Assembly: GCA_964016885.1 (NCBI GenBank)
Contig: OZ024746.1
Location: forward strand, 49,724,001-49,788,000
Origin: Eledone cirrhosa
Lineage: Eukaryota
Direction: 5' to 3'
DNA length: 64,000 nt
Shown: positions 20,134 to 64,000 of the stretch, piece after piece
Layout of the letters: each line of letters begins with the position of its first letter
How positions within the stretch are numbered: position 1 is the stretch's first letter
Program-made: the position numbers and the translations under genes
Notes under the pieces: model-generated
Seen by the model: the letters and a program-made list of their open reading frames with translations, nothing else
The model's database searches: none
Told to the model about the DNA's origin: nothing

Positions 20134-20212
<79 letters not shown>

Positions 20213-20235
20213 TTATTTATCTATCTATCTATCTG
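20134..20235. repeat. (TATC)n tract upstream of a Tx1 copy
   Basis: Direct reading. Confidence 0.95.
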
Positions 20236-20632
20236 TATATCTATAATCTAGCTGTCGTCTGTTCGATAGCGTAGACGTAATTCACTTCGCGCAGAAGTTT
20301 TGTTCCAATTTATTGCGGAAATTGTGTAAGTTTAATTTTAATTTTGATACTATTGTGTAGCTTGATCCCCCCCCCCCCCGTCTGAACTGTCAGGCGGTGG
20401 GTCAGCTCATTTTCGCCCCTCCCAGGGGTGAAAAGATTGTTTTTAAAAATTTTGTTGCATAAAATTTCAATCGTCTGTGAGAAATGTTAAACGAAGCTAA
20501 CGAAAATAGTGGTAGGGGGACAGCGGTAAGAGTTGTAAGCTCGCACGCTTTAGTCTCCCCCTTCCTTCCCAACTAACGTCATAGAGAAGGAAAGAAAAAG
20601 TAAAATAAAACCAGACGAATGTGCGGAGAAAA

Positions 20633-22394
20633 ATGTCGACGAGGACACAGGTCTGGAGATTGATTCCAACAATAACAAAAAATATGAAAGAATTGCATGA
20701 TAATATTAATACCACAAACAAAGAAACAACAAACACAAAAATAACATTTGAAAACAGCAACATCATAACAGAAAGCAAAACAGACGACAAAGTCAACACC
20801 AATAACATCTCATTTGCACAAACAACAAAAAAATCTTTAACATACATACCTGAAAATATTTCAGATGTGGCACAAAGAATAAAAAACGCCAAACAATTCA
20901 TAACTCAAGGGGAAAATGGGGCGTTGTCAGTAAAAATGCCCCAAGAACTCACCAAAGATATTGAAAGTCGGACGGTCGTTTTGCGCACCATCAACAGCAT
21001 CTCAAAAAAGTCACAACAACCAACACAAGCAGAAATTAAAGCGGTACTTAGAGAAGTACTTAATGAAGCCACTTTCATAAGAAGAGACAGGCTCTATGGA
21101 AGCCTAGCCATTATTATGAACAACGAATCGGCGGCAAAAAATATGCTTTGTTGCCGATTCGTTCGACAAATTTTACCTTTTATCCATCTTATATGGGTAA
21201 AAGAACTCAGCGCATATAGCTGGATGCGATGATGCCAGATATGGACTACTGCTGGCTCATAGCTGGTTTCATCTATCCAGCGAATGATAACGTGATTTCC
21301 ATTGGGAAAACCACAGGCAATGCGTTCAGTGGAACAGGTATAGAACTTGTAGTGCAAATGAAGCCTGAACGCATTGACCAAATACCCGACAGAATCCTAT
21401 TAGAGGGCCACGGGTATATAAACATTAGCGTGGAGGGGAGAAGGCCATCCTGTCATATCTGTGCAGGCAGAGGGCACCTGAAGGTGGCTTGTCCCCAACT
21501 CAACAAGAAGAAAACCCTGCTACCAACACCAGCTCCACCACCACCACAACAGATAAACAAACAACAAAACTCAGTCCCACCCAACCCGTCCCTCAGTAAA
21601 ACTACACCACCACCACAGCACAAACAGACACAACACATTACCCAAAAACAAAACACAGTCCCACCCAACCCCTCACTCAATAAAACAACACAACCTCCGC
21701 AGCCACAACACACAACACAGTCCAACATAGTATTATCCATCTCCCCCACAAAGAAAACTAACACGGAAACACTACCAGCAAACATACCTCTTCCCTCCAA
21801 CACTGAAGATAACCCAACGAATTCGGAGGAAGAAACGGAGTCCTTCAGACAGATTAAAAGGAAAAAAAGAAAACATGTGCAAAACACACAAGGCCAAACA
21901 GCCCCTACCCAAATGTCAACACAATCCAACAAAACACAAAACACCCCTCCAGCAACAAACAAAACCAAACCTTCCCCTCCCCTCTTCGAAACACTCACAC
22001 CATCCGAAAAAAAGACATTACACTATACTTACATCAACAGAAACAATAATAAATTAAATGAACTCATAAACAATAACCCTTCGGTACAAACCGAAGGGGT
22101 AAACTTTGTTTCTTCAGAAAACTACCCACATTTAAAATTAATAAAGATCCCAATAAACCTCTACCAAAAACTAAAAAAGGATTTTAAGGAGGACATAGGA
22201 CCACCCTCTGTCAAACCCATAAACCGCGTCCTCCTAAAAAGCTTTCCCCCTCCCTTCCCCTCCCCAACACAACTCCAAACACCCCAACCCCACCACACAC
22301 TGACGACCCCACACCACCACAAGACACCCCTTTACCCAACACCCCCGACCCCATGGAAGTCGTGCGACCCGAACCCCGGGAAGCAGAAAGGTAG
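20633..22394 (+). pseudogene. Tx1 ORF1 (gag-like, CHICAGRGHLKVAC knuckle, Pro/Thr-rich linker), frameshifted
   Basis: ORFs 20621-21232 and 21229-22440; homologous to the open ORF1 starting at 62273. Confidence 0.8.
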
Positions 22395-22427
22395 GTCTCT
22401 ACACTCTCCTTTGGCTTTGCCGCCCAC

Positions 22428-25400
22428 ATGGATGTGTTAAGAGTAGGATGTTTGAATGCACGTGGCCTGGGCTCAACTTGGAAGCAAGCAAAGCTTCTAA
22501 ATGACCTCAGGTCACGTGGTATAAATGTAATGGTTATCTGTGAGACTCGGATCAGCGTCGTGCGGCAGCTGGCCCCTACCTTCGATGACTTTGAGGTGCA
22601 CGCATCTCTCTGTCAACCTGGAGGTGGTGGTGCGGTTGTCGTACTGCTGGAAAACACCTGGGTCTCGCCGTACAGGTTGTTCACTCGGACCCGGAAGGTC
22701 GTTTGTTGGTGCTAGACGTTGGCAGTAGTGAAGGTGCGGCCTTGAGACTGGTCGCCGTCTACTCTCCTTTCGGAGCTGAACGACCCGACTTCTTCCAGCG
22801 TCTGGAGACTTTTCTGGGAACGTCGCGTTCCCTGCTTCTAGCGGGGGACTGGAATGACATCCTAGATGCGCGTTGGGACTATGCAGGAGCATGTCCTACT
22901 AGAGGGGTGTGTAACAGCCTCAAGGGGTTACTCGACCGTTTTAACTTGGTCGATAGATATCGACTAGATTTTCCAACTGTGCCAACCTGGACTTGGACGA
23001 ACCACAGTGGTCAATCTAGATCGTACTTAGATAGATTCTTAGTTAGAAGTAAGGATAGGGACATATTAAGCTGTCCAGAAATGCTCACGGTTGGCTATAC
23101 AGATCACAAATTAGTGACCTGCGTAGTCAACCTCGAGAGAACACATAGACAGGGTCCTGGTTACTGGAAACTTAATTCGTCTTTACCGGCAAAAGAGGCT
23201 TACAGAGACCGGATTAGCAGATTAGTTAAGGAGAGGTTGACGGGTGCAATCGTCAACAACCGATGGTGGGCATCTCTCAAAAGAGAGATTAGAACAGAAT
23301 CAATAAGTTATAGCAAGATGTTAGCTGCCGATAGGAATAGGAACGAGAAAGAATTAACAGGTAAATTAGAAGAGGCAATCAAGGGCGAAGATGTGGTCAG
23401 AGTGCTGGCATCGAGGACGGCCTTGAGCCAGTTTTTCGATGCAAAGCACGAAGGCTGCGTCATTCCAAGTAAAATACGTTCTCTAGGTAATGAGGGGGCC
23501 AAAGCCGTTGGCTGGGCCCGCGTGACAGAAGCTAAGAGTGGAAATCGATCCACCATCCGTCTTTGCAAGACGAGGATGGACGGGTGATCCGGGAGCCTAA
23601 GCAGATGTGCGAGGCCTTTCAAAGGCACTTTGTCCGATTGTTCGGGGGAGGAGGGGTTCCGGGCGGGGACGTCGATTTCGGTCAATACCTCGATGGCCTG
23701 CCACGTCTCTCGAGCGAAGAGGCAGAGTCCTGCGAGGGACCAATCTCGGCTGATGAGATCGGGGAAGCGCTGAGCCAATGCAGCAGACGCAAATCTCCAG
23801 GTCTCGATGGTATACCTTACGAACTTTATTTAGCAATGCCGGTCTTCTTCTCCGAACTCCTCTAAGCAGTCTACTGCAATTGGCAGCAGAACGGGATAAC
23901 TCCTTGTCCTGTAGCCAAGGGCGTAGTCTCGCTGGTGAGGAAGGACGAGAACAAGGGGGATAGTATAAATAATGTTCGGCCCATAACCCTGCTAAACACA
24001 GAGCTAAAGATTTTGGCCAAGGTGTTAGCAAAGAGGTTGGCGCTTGTCGTGGTTAGCCTGGTGGGAGATGCGCAGACATGTGCTATCCCATCCAGGTCCA
24101 TTCACGACAACCTCCACCTCATGCGATACATCATAGAGAGGTTTGGCAACAAACCCGGCTTCGGTGGGGCCCTGATCAACTTGGATCAATCTAAGGCGTT
24201 CGATAGGGTCGACCATCTGCGGCGGCTGGGTTCGGTCCTGTTTTCAGAGGCTGTATCACTGCCTTACATAGCAACCACATCTGTTCTAGGATCAAGGTGA
24301 ACAGCTACCTTTCGAAGCCGTTCGAAATCACACGATCCATTCGACAGGGGTGCCCTCTCTCCTCCCTTCTGTACGTATTGACTCTCGAGCTTTTACTGAG
24401 GAAGTTGGAGTTGTTGCAGGGTATCCCCCTGGAACCAGGATTGAACAAAGCGGTGTCGGCCTACGCCGATGACGTAACAATAATGGTATCGACCGACTCG
24501 GAGATCGAGGCGATCGTTACCTTACTGGAGGAATACGAAAGGTTGTCAGGAGTGAAACTGAACCGGGAAACATCCATCGGGTTGCAACTAGGAACGTGGA
24601 GAGGCAGACCGATGCCTCCCGACGGTGTCGTCGGACAATGGACGGAGGGCCCGGTGAAGTTGCTTGGGGTCTGGTTTGGACCGGACCTCCAGGTGGAAAA
24701 GTACTGGGGCGAGGTTACGAGCAAGGTGTTTGCACTGACCCAGAAATGGGCCAAGTGTAAGCCGTCCCTGAAAGGTCGGGCGGAGGTGGCGAACATTTAC
24801 ATAGCGTCCGTCACCTACTACCGCCTGACTGTCGTGCCTTGCCCTAAGGAAACACTCACCACCATGGAACGCATGCTCATTCAATTTCTTTGTAAAAAGC
24901 GCCCTCCTATGGTGAGAAGATCCATCTGCTGCCAACAACGTTTGAAAGGAGGGCTGGAGATGCCGTGGTTGATGATGCGTAGGAACGCATTAAGGCTACG
25001 GCACCTACAAGTATTCCTCACTGGTCAACCGGTGTGGGCTCCGTTCGTGAGACCAGCCTTTCCGAGACTCGTCTCGCTCACCGAGCTGCAGTCCTGGGTC
25101 AAGCAAAGATCTGGAAAACTGGGCGACTGGCACACTGAGTGTGCCCAGGCGCTCAGGGCTCTCTGGCAAGCGGACCCGGCCATCGGTGGAGAATCCACCT
25201 CGTCATTCGATAGAGGGCTGGTGGCTAGCAGGGGCGATGACACCCTTGGAGAGTCGCTGGACATGGAAAAGGACGAACTGGCCAGCCTGTTCGGTAGGAC
25301 TTTCGGCCCGGGACCAATGGACAACTTCCAGAAGTCACTGGCCTGGCAGTGCTACCGGGGGGCACTACCCGTTCGAGAAAAGCTCTACAGACACGGGCGC

Positions 25401-25844
25401 CCGGGCAGGGATCCCTCAAAAAAGATTTGCCCTAGATGCGTGCGTCACGAAGAAACCGTTGCGCACGCATTGGTGCAATGTCCGGGCGTGGCTGAACTGT
25501 GGGGCTACGCCGAACGACTGCTGTCGCGGGTGGCGCCGATTCGATTGACTGCCAAGTCCGTGATGACAATCAAGCCGCCTCCCCTCTTCACAAAGGAAGA
25601 AAAGGCGGTTTTTCTGTGCGTAATAGCCATGTTGAAAGCGGTTGTTTGGTGGACACGATTGAAAGATCTGAGGTCAGGCAACTTCCTCTCTGGCCATAGT
25701 CTGGTCTACTTCTTCCGATATCACTTCGGAAGAAGTATAAGAATGGAGAGAGAGGTGCCTGGCCACAGGCAGTTTTATGAAAGGTGGGTGATAGAGGCGA
25801 GAATGGCTCGTGTAAATGGGCCTTCTCTGTATACTATCCTGTAG
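22428..25844 (+). pseudogene. Tx1 ORF2 (APE endonuclease, RT, CCHC zinc finger), multiple frameshifts and stops
   Basis: LNARGL, GDWN, SYLDRF, TDHK, GPGYWKLN, KSPGLDG, LDQSKAFD, RQGCPLS, YADD, CPRC-x8-H-x4-C. Confidence 0.92.
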
Positions 25845-26094
25845 GTAAAGAAGTGAAGGAGAGGGGAGCACCTTCTCCATGTGCTCCCCGGGCAAAGGAT
25901 TGCACACTTTTTCGGGGGTGTGTGCAACCGCCATCACGTCCCCTCCCTTTTGAGGTTGTTTTTGATTATTTTCATTTTATACATTTTTTACTCGGTTTTA
26001 TGTAAACTCCCCCTTTGTATTTGTCCTTTCTTTTTATGCCTTTATGGTATATAAAGAAATATATCTATCTATCTATATATACATCTATCTATAT

Positions 26095-26915
26095 ATACAA
26101 CACTTTATCCACCGTATGCAGTTCTCTGGCTACAATCAGAGAGATAGAATCAGAGTGTATAGAGGAGCCAGAACCAAATGGGAAAAAATGGTAAATAATG
26201 ACATAAATTGGACCTGCCCCTTGTACAGGAGCAAATTTTGGAATAGAATAGAAAGAACTAGGAACAAGGCTAATAGAATAAACTCATGGTATGATCGCAA
26301 TAAATACCAGAGTATAATGTTCATCGATACAACCCACCAGAGGCGAACTAGCCTACAAATTTAGAAGGGCCCTAAATAAACATAAACTCAATATTAAGAT
26401 AGTAGAAAGACCAGGTACCTCCGTAAAAACACTTATTAGCAAGACATACCCTTTTCAAAGACCCTCATATATAGATAAGAAATGTATAACCTGTAAAATA
26501 AGCCCCCATATTAACTGTAAAACTAGAAATGTAGTGTATAGCATAAGATGTACTGAAGGACAATGTAGAGACAAAAATATAGTGTACATAGGTGAGACAG
26601 CTCGTAGTATAGGGGAACGGATAAATGAACACTGGCGAGACCTTCAAGATAATAAAGAATCATATGTACTCTACCAACATGCTAAGATAGAACACAAGGG
26701 TAAATTAGAGAACATAGAAATAAAACTAGAATCTACACACAGAAAAGATGCAATGTTTAGACAAATTACAGAGGCAATAAACATAAAAGAATTACAACCA
26801 AAATTAAATAGAAAATATGAGTGGAACAGCAACATCACAACTTACAATTAAGGACAAAATGAAAACACACACACACATAGAACAAACAACCAACCAGTAA
26901 CATGTAAATAAATAA
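26095..26915 (+). mobile_element. 5'-truncated Penelope-like element of the family seen at 60108-61295
   Basis: QHFIHRMQFSGYNQRDR...VVYSIRC...YIGETARSIGERI (GIY-YIG). Confidence 0.85.
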
Positions 26916-35475: not shown

Positions 35476-35552
<77 letters not shown>

Positions 35553-37905: not shown

Positions 37906-38087
37906 TATTGCTGCTATCTTTGATTGTACCCATTAATATAAATGTAATCTCGAAGTGTGTACTGCCACTCTAAATTCTGTAATGAATGTTGACCCACAAT
38001 GTTTGAATATGTATCAATGTTTGAATATGTGTTGGTATGTCTCTCGGCTGAAAAGGAGGTCATATAACTGTCCATGCATTAATAAAT

Positions 38088-38134
38088 TGCTCCGAAGAAT
38101 CCAAACCTCGGTTTGGAGGAAACAGCTGTAAGCA
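38088..38134 (+). ncRNA. Variant hammerhead (CCGAAGA core) in the 5' pLTR
   Basis: tgct-CCGAAGA-atccaaacc(tc)ggtttggag-GAAA-cagctg-TA-agca; identical copies at 42287-42333(+) and 35754-35800(-). Confidence 0.7.
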
Positions 38135-38383
38135 CAATAATGTTTTGAACAGTTCTTTGATTCTTATATTTCATATAACTGCTCTGTAAATCATCTGATG
38201 TTTTTACATTGAGCTACTTAACTTACTGGTAATAAGGTAGTAATACATTACTGCCTACCACTATTTAGGGTGTGTGTAAAATACTTACAACTGCTTAAGG
38301 TTTTGTGTTTACATAACCATAAATAGTATAACTAATACTATTAACTGCTCCATATCGTTGAGCTGACATATAATATTGCCAAT

Positions 38384-42364: not shown

Positions 42365-42460
<96 letters not shown>

Positions 42461-43326: not shown

Positions 43327-43652
43327 GTGTGTGTGTGTGTGTGTGTGTGTGAGCGAGAGTGTGTGTGTGCATGTGTGTGTGTGGGCCTGTGTGTGTGTGT
43401 GTGTGTTTATTGGTTGCAGTACTATGAGAACATCTGGTTTTGAGATGAGACAATATTCGTAACTCATATATTTTATTGTCAGAGCAATATGAGAATGGAC
43501 AGTGCTGGGAGAGGGAGTAAGTGAGTTTAAGAGGACATGAAAACCTAAAGAGTGAACTATTAAAATGTCTGATGGCAACTGAGAAACAGTTTTGAGATAC
43601 AGGACCAGGTAGATAGAAATACAGATGTATTATATAGGTAAACAGGCTGACA

Positions 43653-43743
<91 letters not shown>

Positions 43744-43744
<1 letters not shown>

Positions 43745-44226
43745 AAAAACGAAGGAGAGGCGGTTTTCCTTTGTGTGATAGCTATGGCGAAAGAGGTTGT
43801 ATGGTGGACAAGGTTGAAAGGGCTGAGGTCAGACACCTTTCTCTCCGGCCAACAACTGATTCTTTTTTTCAAATACCACTTTGGAAGAAGAATCAGGATG
43901 GAGAGAGAGGTGCTGTACCCCAGCAAGTTTTATGAAAGGTGGGTGAAAGTGGCGAGAATGGCCCGAGTGAATGGGCCTTCTCTCTATATCAGCCTGTAGA
44001 TTGAGGAAAAGGAGGAGGAGAGGAAAGGAGTACAAGCTCTTCGTACTCCTGGAGATGAGGGTTGCACATTTTTTTCGGGGGTATGTGTTACCCATATAAA
44101 CTGTCTCCCTCTATTGGACTAACTTTTAAATTCCATCTGTGATAACATTTTACACGTTTTTATTGTATGTAAACTTCCCCCTTTGTATTTGTCCCCTTCT
44201 TTTGTGCCCCTGTGGCTAATAAAGAA

Positions 44227-44227
<1 letters not shown>
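43744..44227 (+). mobile_element. 5'-truncated Tx1 LINE between (TATC)n tracts 43651-43743 and 44228-44305
   Basis: Matches ~49622-50113; ends aataaagaa. Confidence 0.9.
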
Positions 44228-44305
<78 letters not shown>

Positions 44306-47300
44306 AGACGTGTGTAACTTCGCGGAGAAGTTTCCGTTAATTTATGTAAAAAAAAAACGTGAGTTTCAGTTAAATTTTATATTATTGTGTAACTTGACCC
44401 CCCGTCTGGACCTTCAGGTGGTGGGTCAACTCATTTTAGCCCCTACAGGGGCGAAATATTCATTTGAAGAAATTTTTCTCCATCGAATTTTGGAAAAAAT
44501 ATTGTAAAAGTTTGATTACGTTATGAACGCTGCGTCCAACGATAATGGTGGTGGAGAGTCGGTAAGACTACAAAGCTCGCAGTCAACACCGTCTTCTTCC
44601 CTTTCCTTCTCAATAGATACTATAGAGATGGAAAGACGAAATGAAAATGTAAAAACAAATTCATATCCAAACAACACAAATGACACCAAACAGTTCAATG
44701 ACAATAAAAATAACAGCAACACCAATAATGATGATAAAAACAACAATGATAACAACAACAAAGAAAAAAATAAGGACAACACCAATAACACCAGCATCAA
44801 AGACAACAACAACACCAAGGAAAATACGAATAATATCAACATCGGTGACAACAAGAATAACAACAAGAATAACAACAATAATGACAACACCACCAACACG
44901 GATAATTCCACACAGAAACCAAAAATATCCTTTGCACAGACAGTTCAAAAAAAGGCGGAACTGATATATCTCGACATAACAAATGCCGAACAACTTTTAA
45001 AGGACGTTAGGAGATATGTCACTTTCGAAAAAAATGGTGCTTTTCAGCATCAATTCTCCGGTAGAAATTCGCAAGGAAACTGCTCTCAAAACGATAGTTT
45101 TAGGACAGTTTCCAATTCTACACGAAAACCAGTCCAATTTTCACAGAAAGAAATTGATGGTTTTCAAAAATTCAATGAATGATATTGCATTCATTCAAAG
45201 AAGCAAACTTTTGGGAGTATTTCGGTACTCATGAAGGATCAATTGACGGCCCAAAATTACTCTGTGTCGCCAATTGTATCCAACCTGTACACCTTTTTCC
45301 CTACATACATGGGAAAAAGGACACAAAAGATCAAAATCACGAGTGTCACACCAAAGGTGAACATATGGTGGATACTGTGCGGCTTCATCGATTTTGATGA
45401 AGACAGAATACTGTCAGTAGGAAAGTCCCCCAGAGATGTATTCAATGGGACTAGCATTGAAGTTCTGGTGCAAATGAGCCCAGAGCCAATAGCTATGATC
45501 CCACAACGTGTACTCCTGGACGGACTCACCTACATAAACTTTTCGGTTGAGGGTAGGCGGCCTTCATGTTACCATTGCTTTAGGAGGGGGTCACCTGAGG
45601 GCTTCCTGTCCTAAATTAATGAGTAAAAAAAAGGCTTTTCGGCCGACACCCATCAAAACAACACAACCACCAACACCACCACAACAACAACAACACCAAC
45701 ACACAAAAATAACCACAACAAACACAGTCCCACCCAACCCCACTCCACCTAAAACCACTGCAAAATCACATACAGACACAACAGCTCCCCAAGACATACC
45801 CCTCCCCAATCAGACATACGATACAACAGATGAGGCTATCTCGCCATCACCCAGTGAAGACGAGAGAACCCCATCGCTCGAAAAGAAAGAAAAGACATCA
45901 CAAAAGCAAAAACCCAGCAAACACTACCACAGACATACAACCACCAACACAAACAACAAAAACATCACAAACAAAACCCCCACCTCCTGAAAACAAAATA
46001 CCTACAATAAAACGAAAGCACACACAAGAACTACAGACAAAAACAAACACAACACAAGAAAATTACACTTACACTTACATAAACATTGAAAACAAAACAC
46101 TAATGGAGACCATCACGAACGACCCTTCGGTGAAAGCCGAAGGGAAAACTTTCGCCCACTATTAAAAATAACAAAAAACTGAACCAAAAACTGATTAGGG
46201 TCCCTATACAAACGTATGGGTCCCTAAAAGAAACATTTGAGAAGGATGTGGTGAATTCCTGCGTGAAAACACTTAACCGCGTCCTTCTCAAATGTCTCCC
46301 CACCCCAGACACCCCCATCCCACCAGACCCCACCCCACCAAACATCTCCGTCCCCACCCCGCCGGAAACCACCACCCATCCAGACAACCCCTCCAACACC
46401 CCCATGGAAATCGTGCGACCTGGTCCCCAGGAGACGAAGGGTGAGTGATCTCTTTTCCTCTTTTAACTTTTCAGCACCTTTTCAGCACCTTTTCAGCACC
46501 TTTTCAGCAACTTTTCAGTATGGATGTGGTAGCCATTTGCGAGTCCAGGATCCACAGCGAGCGACAGCTGGCCCCCATCTTCGATGACTTTGAGATCTAC
46601 GAATCTCTCTGTCAACCGGGGGGTGGGGGCGGAGTTGCCGTTTTGCTGCGGAAACACCTGGGCCTCGTAACACAGACGGTACATCTGGACCCGGAGGGTC
46701 GACTGGTGGTCCTAGACGTTGACGGTAGTGAAGGTGGAGCCTTCAGGCTGGTGGACGCATATGCCCCATCCGGGACACCGCGGCCAGACTTCTTCAAACG
46801 TCTAGAGACTTTTCTGGGAACGTCCCGCTCCTTGCTTTTAGTGGGGGACTGGAATGGAATCCTAGATGCACGTTGGGACTATGTGGGAGCATGTCCCGAT
46901 AAAGGGGGGTGTAACAGCCTCAAACAGTTAATCGACCGATTTGACCTGGCCGATAGATATCGACTAGATTTTCCGACTGCGCCACTGTGGACGTGGAGTA
47001 ATCGTAGCGGAACATCTAGATCCTACCTAGATAGGGTTCTAGTTAGAAATAAGGATAGAGGCATGTTAAGCTCTCCACAAATGTTCATGGTTGCCTATTC
47101 AGATCACAAACTGGTGACCTGCATGGCCAACCTTGATAGAACCCATAGACAAGGACCCGGCTACTGGAAGCTGAACTTGTCGTTACCGACAAGCAAAGCC
47201 TACAGTAGACGGATTAGAACTTTAGTTAAACAGCACTTGACAGGGGCCATTGTCAACATCAGATGGTGGTACTCTCTCAAGAGGGCAGTTAGATTACACT

Positions 47301-50113
47301 CGTTAGTTTTTAGTAAAGAATTAGCGTTAGATAGAAATAGAACCGAGAAGGAACTGGTAGATAAAGTAGAAGAGGCAATTAGAAGTGGCAACGTAGCCAG
47401 CGTGCTAGCAACGAGAACGGCCTTGGACCAGTTCTTCGACGCAAAGCACGAGGGCGGCGTTGCCAGAAGCAAAATACGTGCTCTGGGAAACGAGGGAGCC
47501 AAAGCTGTTAGCTGGGCCCGACTGACGGAGGCAAAAAGTGGCAACAAGTCCTCGATTCGGTCTTTGAAGGACCAAAACGGACGCGTGAAACGTGAGCCGA
47601 AGCAGATGTGTGCGGCCTTTCAGCGGTACTTTCCTCAACTGTTTGGGAGGGGCGGCGCGCGGGGAGGGGCGGCGCGCGGGGAGGGGCTATGGATTTCGGT
47701 CCATACCTCGACGGCCTACCTCGACTCTCGAACAGCGAGGCAAAGTTCTGCGAAAAGCCGATTTCAGCCGCTGAGATAGGGGACGCGCTGAGCCAATGCG
47801 GCAAACGCAAATCTACAGGTCTCGACGGTCTACCCTACGAATTTTACGTAGCAATGCTGGATTTATTCTCCGGTCTCCTGGAAGCGGACTACTGCAACTG
47901 GCAACAGAACGGGAGAATTCCCAGTTCTGTAACCGGGGGCGTAGTCACACTAATAAGGAAGGACGAGAATAAGGGGGATGACATAGGAAACTTCCAGCCC
48001 ATAACTCTGCTAAACACAGAGTTACAGATTTTGGCCAAGGTGTTGGCAAAGAGGCTGGCGCTTGTCGTCGAGAACCTGGTGGGAGAAGCGCAGAAATGCG
48101 CAATCCCGACCAGGTCCATACACGACAACCTCCACCTCATGCGATACATCATAGAGAGGGTAGGGCGTAAACCCGGCTTCAGTGGGGCCCTGATCAACTT
48201 GAATCAGTCTAAGGCTTTCGATAGAGTTGACAATCGTTACCTGGATGCGGTGCTCGAGGCGGCAGGCTTCGGACCCGTGTTCAGGGGCTGGATTGCTGCA
48301 ATGCGCAACAACATCTGCTCAAGGGTCAAGGTGAACGGCTACCTCTCGGAGCCGTTCCATATTACGCGATCCATTCGACAGGGATGCCCTCTCTCCTCCC
48401 TTCTGTACGTACTGACTCTCGAGCCACTACTGCGGAAGTTGGAGCTATTGCAGGGCATCCCTCTGGAACCGGGACTGCGAAAAGCGGCGTCGGGCTATGC
48501 CGACGACGTGACGGTAATGGTGTCGAGCGCCTCGCAAATCGAGGAAGTCGGCACCTTACTGAAGGAATACGAAAATTTCACAGGGGCGAAGATGAACCGG
48601 GACAAGTCCATCGGTTTGCAACTCGGATCGTGGAGAGGCAAACCGATGCCTTCCGATGGCGTTGTCGGACGCTGGACGGAAGGACCGGTAAAGCTGCTCG
48701 GGGTCTGGTTTGGTCCGGACCTCCAGGTGGAGAAGAACTGGAACGAAGTGACGGCCAAGGTGTTTGCACTCACCCAGAAGTGGGCCGAGTGCAAACTATC
48801 CTTGAAAGGTCGAGCGGAGGTGGCGAACACTTTTATAGCGTCCGCCATCTACTACCGCTTGACCGTCGTGCCTTGTCCAGCCAAAACGCTCGCCAAAATG
48901 GAACGCGCGCTCTTCCAATTCCTTAGGAAGAGGCGGGCTCCTTTGGTGAGAAGATCCATCTGCTGCCAACACCCTTCTATCGGAGGGCTGTGAATGCCGT
49001 GGTTGACGATGCGCAAACACGCGCTCAGGCTGCGGCATCTCTACGTATTCCTCACCGGAGAACCGGTGTGGGCCCCGTTCGTGAGGCGAGCCTTCCCACG
49101 ACTCGTCTCGCTGACCGAGCTGCAGTCCTGGGTCAAGCAAAGACAGAGGAAAATGGGCGACTGGCACATCGAATGTGCTCAGGCGCTCACAGCCCTCTGG
49201 CAAGCGGACCCGACGATGAGTGGAGACTCCACTTCGTCATTCTATCGAGGGTTGATCCGCAGCAAGTGCGACGACGCGCTCTGTGAAACTCTAGGCGTAG
49301 AGGAAGATGAACTGGCCAGTCTGTTCGATAGGACCTTCCGCCCGGGACCGATGGACAACTTCCAAAAGTCCCTGGCCTGGCAGTGCTACCGAGGAGCTCT
49401 ACCAGTTCGAGACAAGCTCTACAGACATGGGCGCCCGGGCAGCGACCCTGCAAAAAAGATCTGTCCGAGGTGCGTGCGTGACGAAGAAACCGTCGCGCAC
49501 GCATTCATACACTGTCCGGGCGTCACTGACCTGTGGGGCTATGTAGAACGACTATTGTCGCGGGTGGGACCAATCTGGTTGACCACCGAGTCCATTGTCA
49601 TGATCAAACCGCCACCCTCCTTCAAAAACGAAGGAGAGGCGGTTTTCCTTTGTGTGATAGCTATGGCGAAAGAGGTTGTATGGTGGACAAGGTTGAAAGG
49701 GCTGAGGTCAGACACCTTTCTCTCCGGCCAACAACTGATTCTTTCTTTCAAATACCACTTTGGAAGAAGAATCAGGATGGGGGAGAGGTGCTGTACCCCA
49801 GCAAGTTTTATGAAAGGTGGGTGAAAGTGGCGAGAATGGCCCGAGTGAATGGGCCTTCTCTCTATATCAGCCTGTAGGTTGAGGAAAAGGAGGAGGATAG
49901 GAAAGGAGTACAAACTCTTCGTACTCCTGGAGATGAGGGCTGCACATTTTTTCTGGGGTATGTGTTACCCATATAAACTTTCTCCCCCTATTGGAGAAAA
50001 TCGACTAACTTTTTAAATTGCATTTGTGATAACATTTTACACGTTTTTATTGTATGTAAACTTCCCCCTTTGTATTTGTCCCCTTCTTTTGTACCCCTGC
50101 GGCTAATAAAGAA
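44306..50113 (+). mobile_element. Full-length degenerate Tx1 LINE (copy A)
   Basis: ORF1 fragments ~44628-46448 (CYHC knuckle), ORF2 fragments ~46520-49877; (TATC)n on both sides. Confidence 0.92.
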
Positions 50114-50163
<50 letters not shown>

Positions 50164-51446
50164 TTCCAATTCCTTTGGAAGAGGCGGGCTCCTATGGTGA
50201 GGAGATCCATCTGCTGTCAACACCCTTCGAAAGGAGGGCTGGGGATGCCGTGGCTAATGATGCGTAAACACGCATTAAGGCTACGGCACCTCTACGTATT
50301 CCTCACCGGACAACCGGTGTGGGCCTCGTTTGTGAGACGAACCTTTCCCAGACTCGTCTCACTCACCGAGCTGCAATCCTGGGTCAAGCAAAGACCGAGA
50401 AAACTGGGCGCCTGGCACACTGAGTATGCCCAGGCGCTCACCGCCCTCTGGCAGGCGGATCCGGTTATCAGTGGAGACTCCACCGCAACATTCTATAGAG
50501 GGCTGGTACGCAGCAGGTGCGACGACGCCCTCGGAGAAGCCCTAGACATGGAGGAGGACGAACTGGCCGGCCTGTTCGGTAGGACATTCAGCCCGGGACC
50601 TATGGACAACTTCCAGAAGTCCCTGGCCTGGCAGTGCTACCGAGGAGCTTTACCCGTTTGAGAAAGGCTCTACAGACACGGGCGCCCGGGTAGGGACCCC
50701 GCCAAAAAGATCTGTCCCAGATGCGTGTGCGACGAGGAAACCGTTGCACACGCATTGGCACACTGCGCGGGCGTAGCCGATCTGTGGGGCTATGTCGAAC
50801 AACTGCTGTCAAGGGTGGGACCGATCCGGTTGACCACCGAGTCTATTGTAATGATCAAGCCGCCTCCCCCCTTCAAAGATGAAGCAGAGGCGGTGTTTCT
50901 GTGCGTAATAGCCATGGCGAAAGAGGTTGTATGGTGGACGCGTCTGAAAGGACTGAGGTCAGGCACCTTTCTCTCTGGCCAACAACTGGTCCGTTTCTTC
51001 CGATATCATTTCGGAAGAAGGATCAGGATGGAGAGAGAGGTGCTGCACCCCAGTCGTTTTTATGAAAGGTGGGTGAAAGTGGCGAGAATGGCCCGTGTGA
51101 ATGGGCCTTCTCTTTACATGAGCCTGTAGGTGGAAAAGAGGAAGGAACGAGGGAGCACCCCCTCTCTATGCTCCTGAGGAAAAGGGTTGCACACTTTTTT
51201 CGGGGGTGTGTGCGACCCCCCAAGGCGCCTCCTCTCTATTGAGGATTTTGTTATAAATTTTATTTTTTGTTATATTTTATAACAAAATTCTCTATTGAGG
51301 ATTTTGTTATAATTCTATTTTTTGTTATATTTTATTTTATTTTTATATATTGTTATTGCCTCCTCCCTATTGAGGACGCCTTGTTTGGTAAACTCCCCCC
51401 ATTGTATTTGTCCCACTTTTGATGCCCTTGTGGCAAATAAAAGAAA
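50164..51446 (+). mobile_element. 5'-truncated Tx1 LINE of another subfamily between (TATC)n tracts
   Basis: ORF2 C-terminus 50164-51129 with zinc finger; different 3' UTR ending aataaaagaa. Confidence 0.9.
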
Positions 51447-51448
51447 CA

Positions 51449-51536
<88 letters not shown>

Positions 51537-54500
51537 AGGCGTGTGTAACTTCGCGGTGAATTTTCCGTTAATTTATGTAAGAAAAAAACGTGAGTTTTTA
51601 TTTAAATTTTATATTATTGTGTAACTTGACCCCCGTCTGGACCCTCAAGTAGTGGGTCAACTCATTTTCGCCCCTACAGGGCCGAAATATCCATTTGATT
51701 AAATTTTTCTCCATCGAATCTTGGAAAAAATATTGTAAAAGTTTGATTACGTTATGAACGCTGCGTCCAACGATAATGGTGGTGGAGAGGCGGTAAGACT
51801 ACAAAGCTCGCAGTCAAGAACGTCTTCTTCACTAGATACTATAGAGATGGAAAGATGAAATGAAAATGTAAAAACGAATTCATATCCAAACAACACAAAT
51901 GACACCAAACAGTTCAATGACAACAAAAATAACAGCAACACCAATAAGGATGATAAAAGCAACAATGATAACAACAACAAAGAAAAAAATAAAGACAACA
52001 CCAATAACACCAGCATCAAAGACAACAACAACACCAAGGAAAATACGAATAATATCAACATCGGTGACAACAAGAATAACAACAGCAATAACAACAATAA
52101 TGACAACACGACCAACACGGATAATTCCACAAAGAAACCAAAAACTCCTTTGCACAGACAGTTCAGAAAAGGGAGGAACTGATATATCTCGACATAACAA
52201 ATGCTGAACAACTTTTAAAGGACGCTAGGAGACATGTCACTTTCGAAAAAAATGGTGCTTTCAGCATCAATTCTCCGGTAGAAATTCGCAAGGAAACTGC
52301 TCTCAAAACGATAGTTTTTAGGACAGTTTACAATTCTACCCGAAAACCAGTCCAATTGTCACAGAAAGAAATTATCTGGTTTTCAAAAATTCAATGAATG
52401 ATATTGCATTCATTCAAAGAAGCAAACTTTTTGGGAGTATTTCGGTACTCATGAAGGATCAATTGACGGCCCAAAATTACTCTGTGTCGCCAATTGTATC
52501 CAACCTGTACACCTTTTTCCCTACATACATGGGGAAAAGGACACAAAAGATCAAAATCACGAGTGTCACACCAAAGGTGAACATATGGTGGATACTGTGC
52601 GACTTCATCAATTTTGATGAAGACAGAATACTGTCAGTAGGAAAGTCCCCCAGAGATGTATTCAATGGGACTAGCATTGAAGTTCTGGTGCAAATGAGCC
52701 CAGAGCCAATAGCTATGATCCAACAACGTGTAATCCTGGACGGACTCACCTACATAAACTTTTCGGTTGAGGATAGGCGGCCTTCTTGTTACCATTGCTT
52801 TAGCAGGGGTCACCCGAGGGCTTCCTGTCCTAAATTAATGAATCAAAATAAGACTCTTCTGCCGACACCCATCAAAACAACACAACCATCAACACCACCA
52901 CAGCAACAACAACACCAACACACAAAAATAACCACACCAAACACAGTCCCACCCAACCCCACTCCACCTAAAACCACTGCAAAATCACATACAGACACAA
53001 CAGCTCCCCAAGACATACCCCTCCCCAATCACACAGACGATACAACAGATGAGGCTATCTCGCAATCACCCAATGAAGACGAGGTAGAACCCCATCGCTC
53101 GAAAAGAAAGAAAAGACATCACAAAAGCAAAAAACCGGCAAACACTACCACAAACATACAATCACCAACACAAACAACAAAAACATCACAAACTAAACCC
53201 CCACCTCCTGAAAACAAAATACCTACAACAAAACGAAAGCACACACAAGAACTACAGACAAAAACAAACACAACACAAGAAAATTACACTTACACTTACA
53301 TAAACACTGAAAACAAAACACTAATGGAGACCATCACTAACGACCCTTCGGTGAAAACCGAAGGGAAAACTTTCGCCCACTCTATTAAAAATAACAAAAA
53401 ACTGAAACTAAAACTGATTAGGATCCCTATACAAACTTATGGGTCCCTAAAAGAAACATTTGAGAAGGTTGTGGGGGAATTCCTGCGTGAAACCACTTAA
53501 CCGCGTCCTTCTCAAATGTCTCCCCACCCCAGTCACCCCCATCCCACCTGACCCTACCCCACCAAACATCCCGTCCGCACCCCGCCGGAAACCACCACCC
53601 ATCCAGTCAACCCCTCCAACACTTCCATGGAAATCGTGCAGCCTGGTCCCCAGGAGACGAAGATGAGTGATCTCTTTTCCTCTTTTAACTTTTCAGCACC
53701 AACATGGCCAATATAAGAGTTGGATGTGTGAACGTACGCGGCCTGGGGATGCCCAGGAAACAGGGCAAACTCTTAAACGACCTCAGGTCGCACAGTATGG
53801 ATGTGGTAGCCATTTGCGAGTCCAGGATCCACAGCGAGCGACAGCTGGCCCCCATCTTCGATGACTTTGAGATCTACGCATCTCTCTGTCAACCGGGGGG
53901 TGGGGGCGGAGTTGCCGTTTTGCTGCGGAAACACCTGGGCCTCGTAACACAGACGGTACATCTGGATCCGGAGGGTCGACTGGTGGTCCTAGACGTTGAC
54001 GGTAGTGAAGGTGGAGCCTTCAGGCTGGTGGACGCATATGCCTCATCCGGGACACCGCGGCCAGACTTCTTCAAACGTCTAGAGACTTTTCTGGGAACGT
54101 CCCGCTCCTTGCTTTTAGTGGGGGACTGGAATGGAATCCTAGATGCACGTTGGGACTATGTGGGAGCATGTCCCGATAAAGGGGGGTGTAACAGCCTCAA
54201 ACAGTTAATCGACCGATTTGACCTGGCCGATAGATATCGACTAGATTTTCCGACTGCGCCACTGTGGACGTGGAGTAATCGTAGCGGAACATCTAGATCG
54301 TACCTAGATAGGGTTCCAGTTAGAAATAAGGATAGGGACATGTTAAGCTCTCCACAAATGTTCATGGTTGCCTATTCAGATCACAACTAGTGACCTGCAT
54401 GGCCAACCTTGATAGAACCCATAGACAAGGACCCGGCTACTGGAAGCGGAACTTGTCGTTACCGACAAGCAAAGCCTACAGTAGACGGATTAGCACTTTA

Positions 54501-57234
54501 GTTAAACAGCACTTGACAGGGGCCATTGTCAACAACAGATAGTGGTACTCTCTCAAGAGGGAAGTTAGATTAGACTCGATAGTTTTTAGTAAAGAATTAG
54601 CGTTAGATAGAAATAGAACCGAGAAGGAACTGGTAGATAAAGTAGAAGAGGTAATTAGAAGTGGCAACGTAGCCAGCGTGCTCTGGGAAACGAGGGAGCC
54701 AAAGCTGTTAGCTGGGCCCGGGTGACGGAGGCAAAAAGTGGCAACAAGTCAACGATTCGGTCTTCGAAGGACCAAAACGGACACGTGAGCCGAAGCAGAT
54801 GTGTGCGGCCTTTAAGCGACACTTTCCTCAACTGTTTGGGAGGGGCGGCGCGCCGGGAGGGGCTATGGATTTCGGTCCATACCTCGACGGCCTACCTCGA
54901 CTCTCGGACAGCGAGGCAAAGTTCTGCGAAAAGCCGCTGAGATAGGGGACGCGCTGAGCCAATGCGGCAAACGAAAATCTACAGGTCTCGACGGTCTACC
55001 CTACGAATTTTACGTAGCAATGCCGGACTTATTCTCCGGTCTCCTGGAAGTGGTCTACTGCAACTGGCAACAGAACAGGAGAATTCCCAGTCCTGTAACC
55101 GGGGGCGTAGTCACACTAATAAGGAAGGACGAGAATAAGGGGGATGACATAGGCAACTTCCGGCCCATAACTCAGCTAAACACAGAGTTACAGATTTTGG
55201 CAAAGAGGCTGGCGCTTGTCGCCGAGAACCTGGTGGGAGAAGCGCAGACATGCGCAATCCCGACCAGGTCCATACACGACAACCTCCACCTCATGCGATA
55301 CATCATAGATAGGGTAGGGGGTAAACCCGGCTTCGGTGGGGCCCTGATCAACTTGAATCAGTCTAAGGCTTTCGATAGGGTTGACCATCGTTACCTGGAT
55401 GCGGTGCTCGAGGCGGCAGGCTTCGGACCCGTGTTCAGGGGCTGGATTGCTGCAATGCACAACAGCAACATCTGCTCAAGGGTCAAGGTGAACGGCTACC
55501 TCTCGGAGCCGTTCCATATTACGCGATCCATTCGACAGGGATGCCCTCTCTCCTCCCTTCTGTACGTACTGACTCTCGAGCCACTACTGCGGAAGCTGGA
55601 GCTATTGCAGGGCATCCCTCTGCAACCGGGACTGCGGAAAGCGGCGTCGGGCTACGCCGACGACGTGACGGTAATGGTGTCGAGCGCCTCGCAAATCGAG
55701 GAAGTCGGCACCTTACTGAAGGAATACGAAAGTTTCACAGGAGCGAAGCTGAACCGGGGTAAGTCCATCGGTTTGCAACTCGGATCGTGGAGTGGCAAAC
55801 CGATGCCTTCCGATGGCGTCGTCGGACGCTGGACGGAAGGACCGGTAAAGCTGTTCGGGGTCTGGTTTGGTCCGGACCTCCAGGTGGAGAAGAACTGGAA
55901 CGAAGTGACAGCCAAGGTGTTTGCACTCACCCAGAAGTGGGCCGAGTGCAAACTATCCTTGAAAGGTCGAGCGGAGGTGGCGAACACTTTTATAGCGTCC
56001 GCTATCTACTACCGCTTGACCGTCGTGCCTTGTCCAGCCAAAATGATCGCCAAAATGGAACGCGCGCTCCTCCGATTCCTTTGGAAGAGGCGGGCTCCTT
56101 TGGTGAGAAGATCCATCTGCTGCCAAAACCCTTCTAACGGAGGGCTGGGAATGCCGTGGTCGACGATGCGCAAACACGCGCTCAGGCTTTCCTCAGGTAT
56201 TCCTCACCGGAGAACAGGTGTGGGCCCCGTTCGTGATGCGAGCCTTCCCACGACTCGTCTCGCTGACCGAGCTGCAGTCCTGCAAAGACAGAGGAAAATG
56301 GGTGACTGGCACATCGAATGTGCTCAGGCGCTCACAACCCTCTGGCAAGCGGACCCGGCGATCAGTGGAGACTCCACTTCGTCATTCTATAGAGGGTTGA
56401 TCCGCAGCAAGTGCGACGACGCTCTCTGTGAAACTCTAGGCGTAGAGGAAGATGAACTGGCCAGTCTGTTCGGTAGGACCTTCCGCCCGGGACCGATGGA
56501 CAACTTCCAAAAGTCCCTGGCCTGGCAGTGCTACCGAGGAGCTCTACCAGTTCGAGACAAGCTCTACAGACATGGGCGCCCGGGCAGCGACCCTGCAAAA
56601 AAGATCTGTCCGAGGTGCGTGCGAGACGAAGAAACCGTCGCGCACGCATTCATACACTGTCCGGGCGTCACTGACCTGTGGTGCTATGTAGAACGACTAT
56701 TGTCGCGGGTGGGACCAATCTGGTTGACCACCGAGTCCATTGTCATGATCAAACCGCCACCCTCCTTCAAAAACGAAGGAGAGGCGGTTTTCCTTTGTGT
56801 GATAGCTATGGCGAAAGAGGTTGTATGGTGGACAAGGTTGAAAGGGCTGAGGTCAGACACCTTTCTCTCCGGCCAACAACTGATTCTTTCTTTCAAATAC
56901 CACTTTGGAAGAAGAATCAGGATGGGGGAGAGGTGCTGTACCCCAGCAAGTTTTATGAAAGGTGGGTGAAAGTGGCGAGAATGGCCCGAGTGAATGGGCC
57001 TTCTCTCTATATCAGCCTGTAGGTTGAGGAAAAGGAGTACAAACTCAAAGATGAGGGTTGCACATTTTTTTTCGGGGGTATGTGTTACCCATATAAACTG
57101 TCTCCTCCTATTGGGGAAAATCGACTAACTTTTTAAATTACATTTGTGATAATATTTTACACGTTTTTATTGTATGTAAACTTCCCCCTTTGTATTTGTC
57201 CCCTTCTTTTGTGCCCCTGTGGCTAATAAAGAAA
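51537..57234 (+). mobile_element. Full-length degenerate Tx1 LINE (copy B)
   Basis: Close paralogue of copy A; ORF2 starts MANIRVGCVNVRGL at 53704 and ends at 57022. Confidence 0.92.
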
Positions 57235-57294
57235 CATATCTATTTATATATCTTTCTTTCTCTCTTTTTTTCTTTCCTATGCATTTCCATATAT

Positions 57295-59870: not shown

Positions 59871-59879
59871 GCCATTTTT

Positions 59880-61575: not shown

Positions 61576-61634
<59 letters not shown>

Positions 61635-62005
61635 ATGTGTGTGCGTGTATGTGTGTGTGCATACATATATATATATATGCATTCTTACTAGTGAAATACT
61701 AGGTACGTAAGGAAACTATAAAACAAAGATAACTGGTAGCCAAGTTGGAATTGTATCAAGATTTTCTGATGATTTTTACCTTACTATTTTCTGCTTATTC
61801 TTATGTGTTTGTGTACATTTTACGTGAATATACATTAAAAGAAGAAAATCCCATTGGACTACAGAGGCCAGTAAAACTAGATTCAGTAGCATTGGCTTTA
61901 AACTCATTCTAAGCACACACAGGCAGACTCGATTTCGATCCCAACGTGTGTCATCTTAGCACACAATTCTGAGGGATATTTGTCTGACAGTCTACACAGA
62001 AGAAC

Positions 62006-62070
<65 letters not shown>

Positions 62071-62071
<1 letters not shown>

Positions 62072-64000
62072 GATAGAGTAAGACACGCTTCGCATCGGCT
62101 CCGCTATTCCATCGGGATTTACCCTTACTATTGTAAGTACCGGATAAATTTTTTAGTGCAACACATTTGGAACACTAACCCCTGTTATTTAGGGAAACAT
62201 TTTTGCATTTACCCCCTTTTTAGGGGGTAAAATAAATATCTATTTTTGCCGAAAAATTTCTTTCTTGGCAGCATGGCGGAAAAGATGGCAGACATGTCTG
62301 CCATTAGCTCTGCCACGCCCCCCAAGTCTGAAGAACAAAAAATAATTACAACAAAATTAGACATTGAAACAAACAAACAAAATGAAAAAACAAATGTTAA
62401 GGAAAATGAGCAAACAGAAAACAAACAAACAGAAAATAATACAAATAACGACAGGGCAACTTTCGCCCAGAAAACAAAGCAATCCATTACATACACACCA
62501 ATTGACCTAACTGCCGCCAGAGAAAAACTGGCCGAAGCAAAGAAACATATTGTTTTGGGGGAAAACGGAATGTTTTCCATTAACTCCCCCCCAGAATTCA
62601 AGAAAGCCAGAGCAGAAAACACAGTTATATACAGAACTATACTAAACCAGTCAAGAAAGCCAGCACAGCCCAGCCAAATGGAAATAGAGTTAGTCCTAAA
62701 AGACTATATGAAGAATATTCTCTTCATACGAAAGGACCGACTCTATGGCAGCATTTCGGTCCTAACAAGAGACAAAGAAACGGCGGTTCAGCTTTCCCTA
62801 AGCCCACTCTCGTCGACAACATATAGCTTCTATCCCTCCTACATGGGTAGAAGAACTCAGAGAATAAAAGTAAAAACAATGCTGCCCACAATGGACTTCT
62901 GGTGGGCTATTGCTGGCTTCATTGATATGGGCGAAGACACTATGCTGTCAATGGGGAAGGCAACTGGAGATGCGTTCCTGGGAATGGGCCTCGACATACT
63001 AGTCCAAATGAGGCCCGAAAGAATAGCACAAATCCCGGATCGCATCTGGCTGGATGACCTTACCCCAATAGACATAATTGTAGAGGGGAGAAGACCAGCA
63101 TGCTATTTATGCATGGAAAGGGGACACGTTAAGGCTAACTGCCCGAAACGTATCCCCCAAAAAGGACTATTGCCCACACCCACCACAAACAGTACACCAG
63201 CACCACCCACCTCCAAAAATACACTAATACCACACACAGCAAACAAAATACAGACACCACCAACCACAAACACAACACAAACATCACCACCACCAGCACC
63301 AAACACAAGCACGACACAAAAATCACCACCACCAACCACAACACAAACATCACCACCACCATTACCAACCACAAGCACGACACAAACATTACCACCACCA
63401 CCACCACAAAACCCATTCCAAACAAATAATAAAAAAAACAGTAACAAATCTACCCCTCCCGCAAAAAAAAAACAACCACACAACACGTCCCTCCCACCTA
63501 GCGCTGAAGAGTTTCCCCCAACTTCTGAAGAAGAAGGAGGAGAAGCCTTCAGACAAGTTAAAAGAAAAAAAAGAAAACACACACCCAGCACACCACAAAT
63601 AACCCACACACAAACACCAACTCCAATCAAAAACACCCCACCCTCAACAAACAAAAATAAATCTGCGCCTCCCCTCTCCGAAACATTGACAGCATCACAA
63701 AAAAAGACGTTGCAATACACATATATAAATAAAGAAAACAAAAAACTGGTTAAATTAATAAACAATAACCCTATGGTGCAGACCGAAGGGCCAAACTTTA
63801 TCTCAACAGAGAACTTCACCCATTTAAAAATGATAAAGGTCCCTCTGGACCTTTATCGTTCCTTAAAAGAACAATTTAGACGGGACGTGAGCCCCCCCTG
63901 TTTAAAACCGTTGAATCGCGTCCTCTTGAAAGATTTCCCCATAACCGCCCCTCTCCCTGACACAACTCCAAATACCCCAACCCCACCACACACGTGTACC
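62071..64000 (+). mobile_element. 5' part of a further Tx1 subfamily after the (TATC)n tract at 62041-62070; runs off the window
   Basis: ORF1 homologous to the other copies. Confidence 0.88.
62273..64000 (+). CDS. Tx1 ORF1, apparently open to the window end (incomplete)
   Basis: MAEKMADMS...TFAQKT...GENGMFSINSP...YMGRRTQRI...CYLCMERGHVKANC translated by hand; no stop-terminated ORF is reported for this frame in the track. Confidence 0.8.
   Translation, partial: MAEKMADMSAISSATPPKSEEQKIITTKLDIETNKQNEKTNVKENEQTENKQTENNTNNDRATFAQKTKQSITYTPIDLTAAREKLAEAKKHIVLGENGMFSINSPPEFKKARAENTVIYRTILNQSRKPAQPSQMEIELVLKDYMKNILFIRKDRLYGSISVLTRDKETAVQLSLSPLSSTTYSFYPSYMGRRTQRIKVKTMLPTMDFWWAIAGFIDMGEDTMLSMGKATGDAFLGMGLDILVQMRPERIAQIPDRIWLDDLTPIDIIVEGRRPACYLCMERGHVKANCPKRIPQKGLLPTPTTNSTPAPPTSKNTLIPHTANKIQTPPTTNTTQTSPPPAPNTSTTQKSPPPTTTQTSPPPLPTTSTTQTLPPPPPQNPFQTNNKKNSNKSTPPAKKKQPHNTSLPPSAEEFPPTSEEEGGEAFRQVKRKKRKHTPSTPQITHTQTPTPIKNTPPSTNKNKSAPPLSETLTASQKKTLQYTYINKENKKLVKLINNNPMVQTEGPNFISTENFTHLKMIKVPLDLYRSLKEQFRRDVSPPCLKPLNRVLLKDFPITAPLPDTTPNTPTPPHTCT

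Follow-up and report, generated by a model that had tools for sequence, protein, structure and literature searches.

TATC/GATA repeats as an apparent target of L1/Tx1-group retrotransposons in a 64-kb window of the Eledone cirrhosa genome

Why should every long interspersed element (LINE) in a stretch of cephalopod DNA begin at the same tetranucleotide repeat? This question is raised by a 64,000-nt stretch of the Eledone cirrhosa genome (contig OZ024746.1, positions 49,724,001 to 49,788,000; hereafter the window, numbered from its first base), which was picked for its association of TATC repeats with LINEs and is the single window to which the analysis applies. It holds six LINE copies, A to F, every one on the plus strand and together filling about 21 of the 64 kb; with these masked, no further LINE piece was found on either strand of the window by blastn or tblastx. 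The copies fall into four subfamilies (A; B/C/E; D; F), with nucleotide identities of 72-83% between subfamilies and about 95% within them (A-C 77%, A-D 82%, C-D 83%, A-F 72% over 461 bp, C-E 95%). An earlier note, made from the sequence alone, had described six copies from at least three diverged subfamilies, all in one orientation and each starting at a TATC tract. That description holds, with the number of subfamilies raised to four and with the qualification that B, C, D and E form a single array, so that the independent loci number three. Judging from sequence, we consider it likely that these copies represent a LINE lineage whose apurinic/apyrimidinic-type endonuclease (APE) targets TATC/GATA repeats. 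The copies and their flanks are as follows (ORF, open reading frame; RT, reverse transcriptase).

20132..20244, plus strand: tract on the 5' side of locus A, TA+(TATC)n in which variants occur, terminating in a 9-bp duplication TATATCTAT (20236-20244)
20245..26059, plus strand: copy A, a full-length LINE forming a subfamily by itself, with frameshifts and stops in both ORF1 and ORF2; 5' boundary good to about 5 bases either way
26028..26059, plus strand: predicted 3'-terminal hairpin of A, in which the final AAAGAA pairs with a U-rich arm upstream
26060..26096, plus strand: 3' flank of A, with the second TATATCTAT (26060-26068), 15 bp of perfect TATC and decayed units, then a Penelope-like fragment
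43651..43744, plus strand: outer 5' tract of the array, CA+(TATC)23, 94 bp; no upstream LINE end found
43745..44227, plus strand: copy B, 5'-truncated, 483 bp, of the C/E subfamily; 5' junction with a 2-nt TC microhomology
44228..44305, plus strand: B-C spacer, TC+(TATC)n, 78 bp
44306..50114, plus strand: copy C, full-length, RT in frame at 47596-48990 and zinc finger within 48994-49821; an 11-bp unit repeated 4.7 times (46467-46518) stands in place of the ORF2 start and APE N-terminus, and a 17-bp duplication at 47645-47687 shifts the frame
50115..50163, plus strand: C-D spacer, TC+(TATC)n+TAT, 49 bp
50164..51446, plus strand: copy D, 5'-truncated, 1283 bp, of its own subfamily, with the highest CpG decay
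51447..51536, plus strand: D-E spacer, CA+(TATC)22, 90 bp, with the 5' copy of the seed CATATCTAT
51537..57234, plus strand: copy E, full-length with several deletions; APE domain at 53704-54387, its catalytic motifs intact, followed by a stop; RT and zinc finger within 54816-56966
57235..57276, plus strand: flank on the 3' side of the array, opening with the 9-bp CATATCTAT and continuing with about 8 decayed TATC/TTTC units that keep the register
62040..62070, plus strand: 5' tract of F, 30 bp of perfect TATC with (CT)7(CA)10 in front
62071..64000, plus strand: copy F, representing the fourth subfamily; its ORF1, which has a CCHC knuckle, stays open from 62273 up to the end of the window; ORF2 and the 3' end lie beyond the window

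Each of A, C and E bears stops, frameshifts or deletions. CpG decay affects 8 of 40 sites in D, 5 in A, 1 in E and none in C, a comparison confounded by subfamily differences, and D is probably the oldest copy.

Repeat association and junctions

We took a census of perfect tracts outside the LINE copies, counting a TATC-class tract as associated if it ended no more than 35 bp from a LINE 5' end. All six TATC tracts of at least 30 bp have a LINE 5' end, as against 0/39 TA tracts of this length that hold a LINE copy (0/67 at 20 bp or more). Other tracts of at least 30 bp were likewise empty (AC 0/2; AG 0/1, a 67-bp tract), and at 20 bp or more one of six AC tracts was scored, namely the CA run preceding the TATC tract of F. 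TA tracts amount to 1831 bp compared to 418 bp for TATC, so that a repeat four times more abundant is nowhere occupied, in keeping with the earlier claim that long TATC tracts have a LINE beside them and TA tracts none. TATC sequence makes up 500 of the 42,982 non-LINE bases (1.2%), which puts the chance of hitting it at loci 2 and 3, given locus 1, at about 3e-5, a value to be read in light of the window having been picked for this feature. Runs reading GATA reach 10 bp nowhere in the window, and it has no unoccupied TATC tract of at least 20 bp (3/3 loci are occupied). Since no Rfam family was detected in the window, an RNA gene is not the target. Eight perfect TA tracts attain 67-75 bp and none is longer, a ceiling that may be biological or assembly-derived, and tract lengths are thus to be treated with care.

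The junctions themselves are strikingly uniform on the 3' side. At all five visible 3' ends the element stops at AAAGAAA, followed by two variable bases (TA, TC, TC, CA, CA) and then TATCTAT, without poly(A), bearing out the earlier statement that the 3' ends run into TATC-type sequence with no poly(A) tail. The phase of this junction is identical in 5/5 cases, for which the chance under random phase is 1 in 256, and the dinucleotide after AAAGAAA varies even inside the B/C/E subfamily (B TC, C TC, E CA). AAAGAAA is element-encoded, because it is predicted to pair with a U-rich upstream arm in all five copies. The resulting 3' hairpin, predicted in A to E, is significant in A (z -5.2), weak in B and E (z -2.3) and without significance in C (z -0.6) and D (z 0.15), and we do not claim a conserved structure. 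A phase that stays constant while the linker varies, also among members of a single subfamily, speaks for a nick in host DNA and against a templated tail.

On the 5' side, all six junctions are compatible with a join after TATCTAT. This join is direct in A and D and involves a templated C or TC microhomology in B; for C, E and F it applies only if the element begins with C. Copy A is flanked flush on both sides by the 9-bp duplication TATATCTAT. In addition, the window contains CATATCTAT four times. Three of these occurrences lie at the array's left edge, where the D-E spacer starts and in the flank following E, a pattern expected if a single site was duplicated in successive rounds. Architecture, orientation, junction phase and the one flush 9-bp duplication can all be read directly from the window.

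From these junctions a mechanism can be proposed. The endonuclease would nick the GATA strand two bases ahead of a TATC unit, at a site read on the top strand as R^Y(A/C)TATCTAT, frequently where the tract adjoins TA or CA (3/5 3' junctions), and the freed end would prime reverse transcription of a non-polyadenylated RNA ending in the hairpin and AAAGAAA. Joining of the top strand after TATCTAT would then yield a duplication of 9 bp, or of 9 plus multiples of 4. Every insertion would leave a new site on both sides, upon which later copies, those of other subfamilies included, could stack head to tail as in B-C-D-E. The tracts between copies would grow later by slippage, and at least one of them may have become long at insertion.

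Affiliation, relatives and neighbouring elements

In a Pfam search, ORF2 pieces of the window copies match APE (PF03372), RT (PF00078) and zf-RVT (PF13966). The order of N-terminal APE, RT and C-terminal zinc finger is that of the L1 group, and two further traits of this group are found here, namely 5' truncation in B and D and, flush at A only, a 9-bp target site duplication. An APE model of copy E (predicted local distance difference test score, pLDDT, 93.9) has L1-EN as its closest structure (template-modelling score, TM, 0.85), and for the RT of the window copies the closest solved structure is L1 ORF2p. Copy E keeps the catalytic motifs of APE enzymes. They include the equivalents of D145, T192 and H230 (numbering as in PMC1950540). 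ORF1 matched no Pfam family, and a protein search returned relatives in 0/1554 candidates; across the conserved blocks, the ORF1 of F is 48-58% identical to those of A and E. A CCHC knuckle of the form C-x2-C-x4-H-x4-C, a feature of the Tx1 clade, is present in ORF1 of A, E and F. Among named proteins, those of Argonauta hians (64 and 67% identity) and Acanthosepion pharaonis (51%) come closest, which by itself would make an octopod the probable host, and similarity is higher to an Alligator protein named TX1 (239 bits, 37%) than to human L1 ORF2p (126 bits).

We also built a quick RT tree of 79 rows with a midpoint root and Shimodaira-Hasegawa-like approximate likelihood-ratio test (SH-aLRT) support without bootstrap, from which Argonauta P0121 was dropped as too short and which contains no Kibi, Koshi, Keno, Dewa or Tx1L rows and no sure L1 outgroup. 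Three window rows cluster with an Argonauta protein and three unnamed proteins (SH-aLRT 99), this cluster lies inside a 32-row branch on a long stem (SH-aLRT 100) that includes the cuttlefish protein, and named vertebrate proteins, including one called TX1, are placed away from the window clade. Overall, the elements appear to be L1/Tx1-group retrotransposons of the kind that lacks long terminal repeats (non-LTR). Their assignment to the Tx1 clade in the earlier note agrees with architecture and similarity, and it is on these that the label rests, the tree being one without reference families.

Relatives came from genome scans. When bacterial and archaeal genome records were scanned with an alignment of 29 rows, 48 loci were obtained, of which 41 are from one metagenome-assembled genome (MAG) record, CAXXMW01, and are evidently animal DNA binned into the MAG. 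The window's own branch is represented in 0/48 of these loci, and a single-protein scan of bacterial and archaeal genomes gave 33 pattern matches with no confirmed relative. The CAXXMW01 loci (L001-L039, L044 and L048) have an RT 48-52% identical to that of the window copies and form a sister branch (SH-aLRT 100). Their ORFs are mostly intact, their ORF1 carries the CCHC motif, and they lie in head-to-tail arrays with a period of about 6.4-6.9 kb, in which the 3' end, made up of the hairpin, AATAAA and a few bases without poly(A), abuts the next copy at 43/43 distinct junctions on 16 contigs. Every array has its own junction, and L006 shows one array's left edge near 1002. No Rfam match was obtained in the seven CAXXMW01 loci checked. 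TATC is found at 0/43 of the junctions, and a TATC or GATA run of 10 bp is absent from all 48 scan loci. The two lineages thus share the CCHC ORF1, the hairpin end, the lack of poly(A) and stacking; the relatives are joined directly, whereas the window copies are joined via TATC. Lack of poly(A) and tandem stacking are therefore traits of the wider lineage, and TATC is particular to the window branch as far as flanks have been seen; with no TATC at 43 junctions of its relatives, the TATC target appears to be lineage-specific. Four poly(A)-type rows from the scan (L042, L043, L045 and L046) were weighed as a possible L1 outgroup but set aside as unreliable, since L1 ORF2p was compared with L042 only and the four rows differ in composition. 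In another scan locus (L040; 2814-2977, 9739-9915) a distant Tx1-like element with 35% RT identity follows a U1 snRNA gene at a distance of about 160 bp and has a second U1 downstream; it possibly represents a U1-array-associated family.

Other mobile elements populate the window. The largest, at 35547-42376, which we take to be Penelope-like from its motifs, has an uninterrupted 832-residue frame (38345-40843), (TA)n on both flanks and a 2.2-kb inverted repeat of 99.9% identity (35711-37904 and 40183-42376); Pfam gave no match for the frame, and the inverted copy of its C-terminus is a weak GIY-YIG match. Penelope-like fragments of at least two families lie at 16517-17353, 26095-26851, 32250-33665 and 60108-61295; some adjoin TA tracts, and one begins directly in the 3' flank of copy A. 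A Tc1/mariner-type transposase frame of 347 residues without a stop occupies 7655-8698, with HTH_32 and DDE_3 below cut-off, and 826-5136 consists of two long TA/CA-rich low-complexity arms in opposite orientation, over which GC skew passes from -0.88 to +0.84.

Endonuclease targeting, the long tracts and competing explanations

Several observations weigh against endonuclease targeting of TATC/GATA. There are only three independent loci, in a window picked for the feature, and the site consensus was derived from the same five junctions that it explains. The duplication is unmeasurable at B and C, where the flanks are pure repeat, and none is flush at D or E. Empty minimal matches to the nick consensus exist at 8908, 9404 and 16576, all on the plus strand and with none on the minus strand, and no fully visible copy has both ORFs intact. 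In L1-EN, the choice of target is shaped by a loop lying between a conserved T and a conserved S anchor (PMC1950540). This loop has one length in A, C, E and Argonauta P0121 and is 1-3 residues longer in 13/14 full-length rows of the sister branch. However, the 8-residue length is common in distant relatives as well and is not diagnostic, and loop grafts do not transfer specificity modularly (PMC1950540).

The alternative that survives best accepts the targeting and differs in where the long tracts come from. It holds that the element targets a short seed of about two TATC units at a TA or CA edge and that the long 5' tract arises during insertion, either from a (UAUC)n leader that the RNA carries from the donor's upstream tract and that anneals to the cut top strand, or from slippage of the reverse transcriptase on the duplicated seed. 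Insertion may thus create the long tract, a third option beyond target and tail that the earlier note had missed. The clearest case is copy E, where the seed CATATCTAT spans 90 bp of pure repeat before the element and 9 bp after it; the tracts 5' of the array copies measure 94, 78, 49 and 90 bp. Two units are below the slippage threshold for tetranucleotides of about 4 units (a mammalian estimate; PMC3812793), and a later loss of purity in E's flank would need two changes in 16 bp, with p 0.015-0.055 at an E private divergence of 1.2-2.4%. The left edges of all three outer tracts match the nick consensus, the absence of empty tracts of 20 bp or more also fits, and in the melanogaster group full-length R1 transcripts bear target sequence from upstream, which anneals where the 5' junction forms (PMC2718515). 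If the nick falls at an edge and the tract grows on the 5' side, the 3' flank of F, beyond 64000, should begin CCTATCTAT.

Against such growth, the case depends mainly on one junction, that of E. Locus A is fully accounted for by the flush 9-bp duplication in an old, interrupted tract and growth is unneeded there, the sequence following E consists of about 10 decayed TATC/TTTC units, which means that a microsatellite was already there, and the leader route fails for the tract before D, a truncated and probably oldest copy. The asymmetry at E may reflect a tract made at insertion, two later substitutions in E's flank or a blunt insertion at a chance CA variant, which also fits. The array does require growth of the 5' copy of a short duplicated seed, or coincidence. 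Taken together, we regard self-made long tracts as conceivable but somewhat improbable, and only tentatively suggest that this lineage recognises a two-unit TATC seed and builds 50-90 bp of (TATC)n at its own 5' junction, enlarging the target for later copies. The earlier note had taken the tracts at 20134, 43651 and 62041 as targets and not tails within an overall picture of TATC-specific insertion. TATC-specific insertion in fixed phase and orientation is supported, and the three tracts, with no LINE end upstream, are not tails; the prior existence of all the long tracts is borne out only in part.

Another explanation dispenses with a TATC-specific enzyme altogether. One local hot spot, or self-targeting in which copies insert beside earlier ones, could have gathered the copies, with TATC shared by chance or through retention in harmless repeat DNA; four of the six copies do lie in one array, LINEs fill about 21 of the 64 kb, and the relatives form head-to-tail arrays without a repeat spacer. 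We consider this unlikely, as target, strand and phase are common to three separate loci and four subfamilies and the far longer total of TA tracts (1831 vs 418 bp) holds no copy.

CR1 and L2 elements end in a microsatellite 3' tail, which the end of the RNA templates and which leaves the repeat confined to that side. If TATC were such an element-made tail, with later copies landing in the tails of earlier ones, the constant 3' phase, the lack of poly(A) and the fact that three of the six long tracts directly follow a 3' end would be explained. Yet no LINE 3' end was found within 300 bp upstream of the three outer tracts (the best local score, 18, equals the null median), the long tracts lie 5' and the 3'-only flanks are the shortest (15 bp perfect after A, 9 bp after E), the bases after AAAGAAA differ within one subfamily, and relatives with a like hairpin-AATAAA end have no microsatellite tail at 43/43 junctions. 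The earlier note had named TATC occurring only as an element-generated 3' tail as an outcome that would overturn its interpretation, and the outer tracts and the junctions contradict it. Endonuclease targeting is favoured over a tail because of the fixed 3' phase with a variable dinucleotide and the flush 9-bp duplication at A, and we give a tail very little credence. Least probable of all is an assembly artefact or segmental duplication: long tracts are difficult to assemble and perfect TA tracts repeatedly end at 67-75 bp, but C and E have diverged at 3.2% of sites, each with 37 private substitutions in 3187 columns and with deletions of their own, and A, D and F belong to other subfamilies, so that tract lengths could be imprecise while the adjacency could not.

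Known microsatellite-specific elements and significance

Tx1 families have been described that insert specifically at (TC)n, (TTC)n, (TTCC)n and (TTTC)n (PMC4494074), among them Kibi on (TC)n and Koshi on (TTC)n in teleost fish (PMC4494074, PMC3812793) and crocodilian families of the Tx1-1_Crp group on (TTCC)n/(TTTC)n (PMC4494074). The earlier note's mention of Kibi and Koshi as microsatellite-specific Tx1 families agrees with this literature; the (TTCC)n/(TTTC)n families had gone unmentioned. A family is counted as target-specific in PMC4494074 when more than 20% of flanks hold one repeat type, and in this window only, TATC flanks 6/6 copies at 3/3 loci. Like Kibi and Koshi, the window family is an APE-type, Tx1-like LINE beside a TC-containing microsatellite, and by analogy it may work as they do; the target here is TATC, the host is a cephalopod, and the 67-bp AG tract holds no copy, so that the Kibi and Koshi targets are not shared. 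With the crocodilian families it has in common a tetranucleotide target, TTTC being one base from TATC; the repeat unit differs, and the named vertebrate proteins stand apart from the window clade in the RT tree. Further microsatellite-specific elements, namely Waldo, Mino, Dong and Togen, belong to R1, R4 and NeSL-related clades. Their targets are ACAY for Waldo, AC for Mino, TAA for Dong and TG for Togen (PMC3812793, PMC4640811), and they differ from the window family in both clade and repeat unit. In R1A of the melanogaster group the RNA carries target sequence from upstream and cleavage of the top strand is variable, a precedent on both counts, although it is an R1-clade element with a 28S rDNA target that carries 6-27 nt and shows no microsatellite growth (PMC2718515).

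For molluscs, the accessible text of PMC10294476 has a sole mention, that the Tx1 clade is present. In Octopus vulgaris, 80 L1-Tx1 families occupy 56 Mb and 13 have been recently active (PMC13282606); the window family may be among them, and no target preference for these families was found in the accessible parts of that paper, where a word search of the supplement for target, TATC and GATA gave 0 matches. Literature searches, whose coverage lay outside Repbase, Dfam and most subscription papers, found no GATA/TATC-specific LINE, and word searches for GATA and TATC were empty in the accessible text of PMC4494074, PMC4640811 and PMC8869645, with Figure 3 and the supplements of PMC4494074 as places that could list such a target. 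Microsatellite targeting itself is known; TATC/GATA as a LINE target seems unreported.

If endonuclease targeting is correct, these copies would extend the short list of microsatellite-specific LINEs by a new target, TATC/GATA, and by a host group not yet on it. The TATC-targeting copies and their stacking relatives, with about 50% RT identity and no repeat at their junctions, form a natural pair for the study of a change in APE target, and the junctions supply exact predicted nick positions. Microsatellite birth has been described from 3' tails and internal seeds (PMC3812793). Should the long tracts prove to be self-made, the element would both target and manufacture GATA microsatellites, a 5'-side route of microsatellite birth, and LINE insertions in this genome would be marked by GATA repeats, with consequences for how the origin of GATA microsatellites is viewed and for their use as markers.

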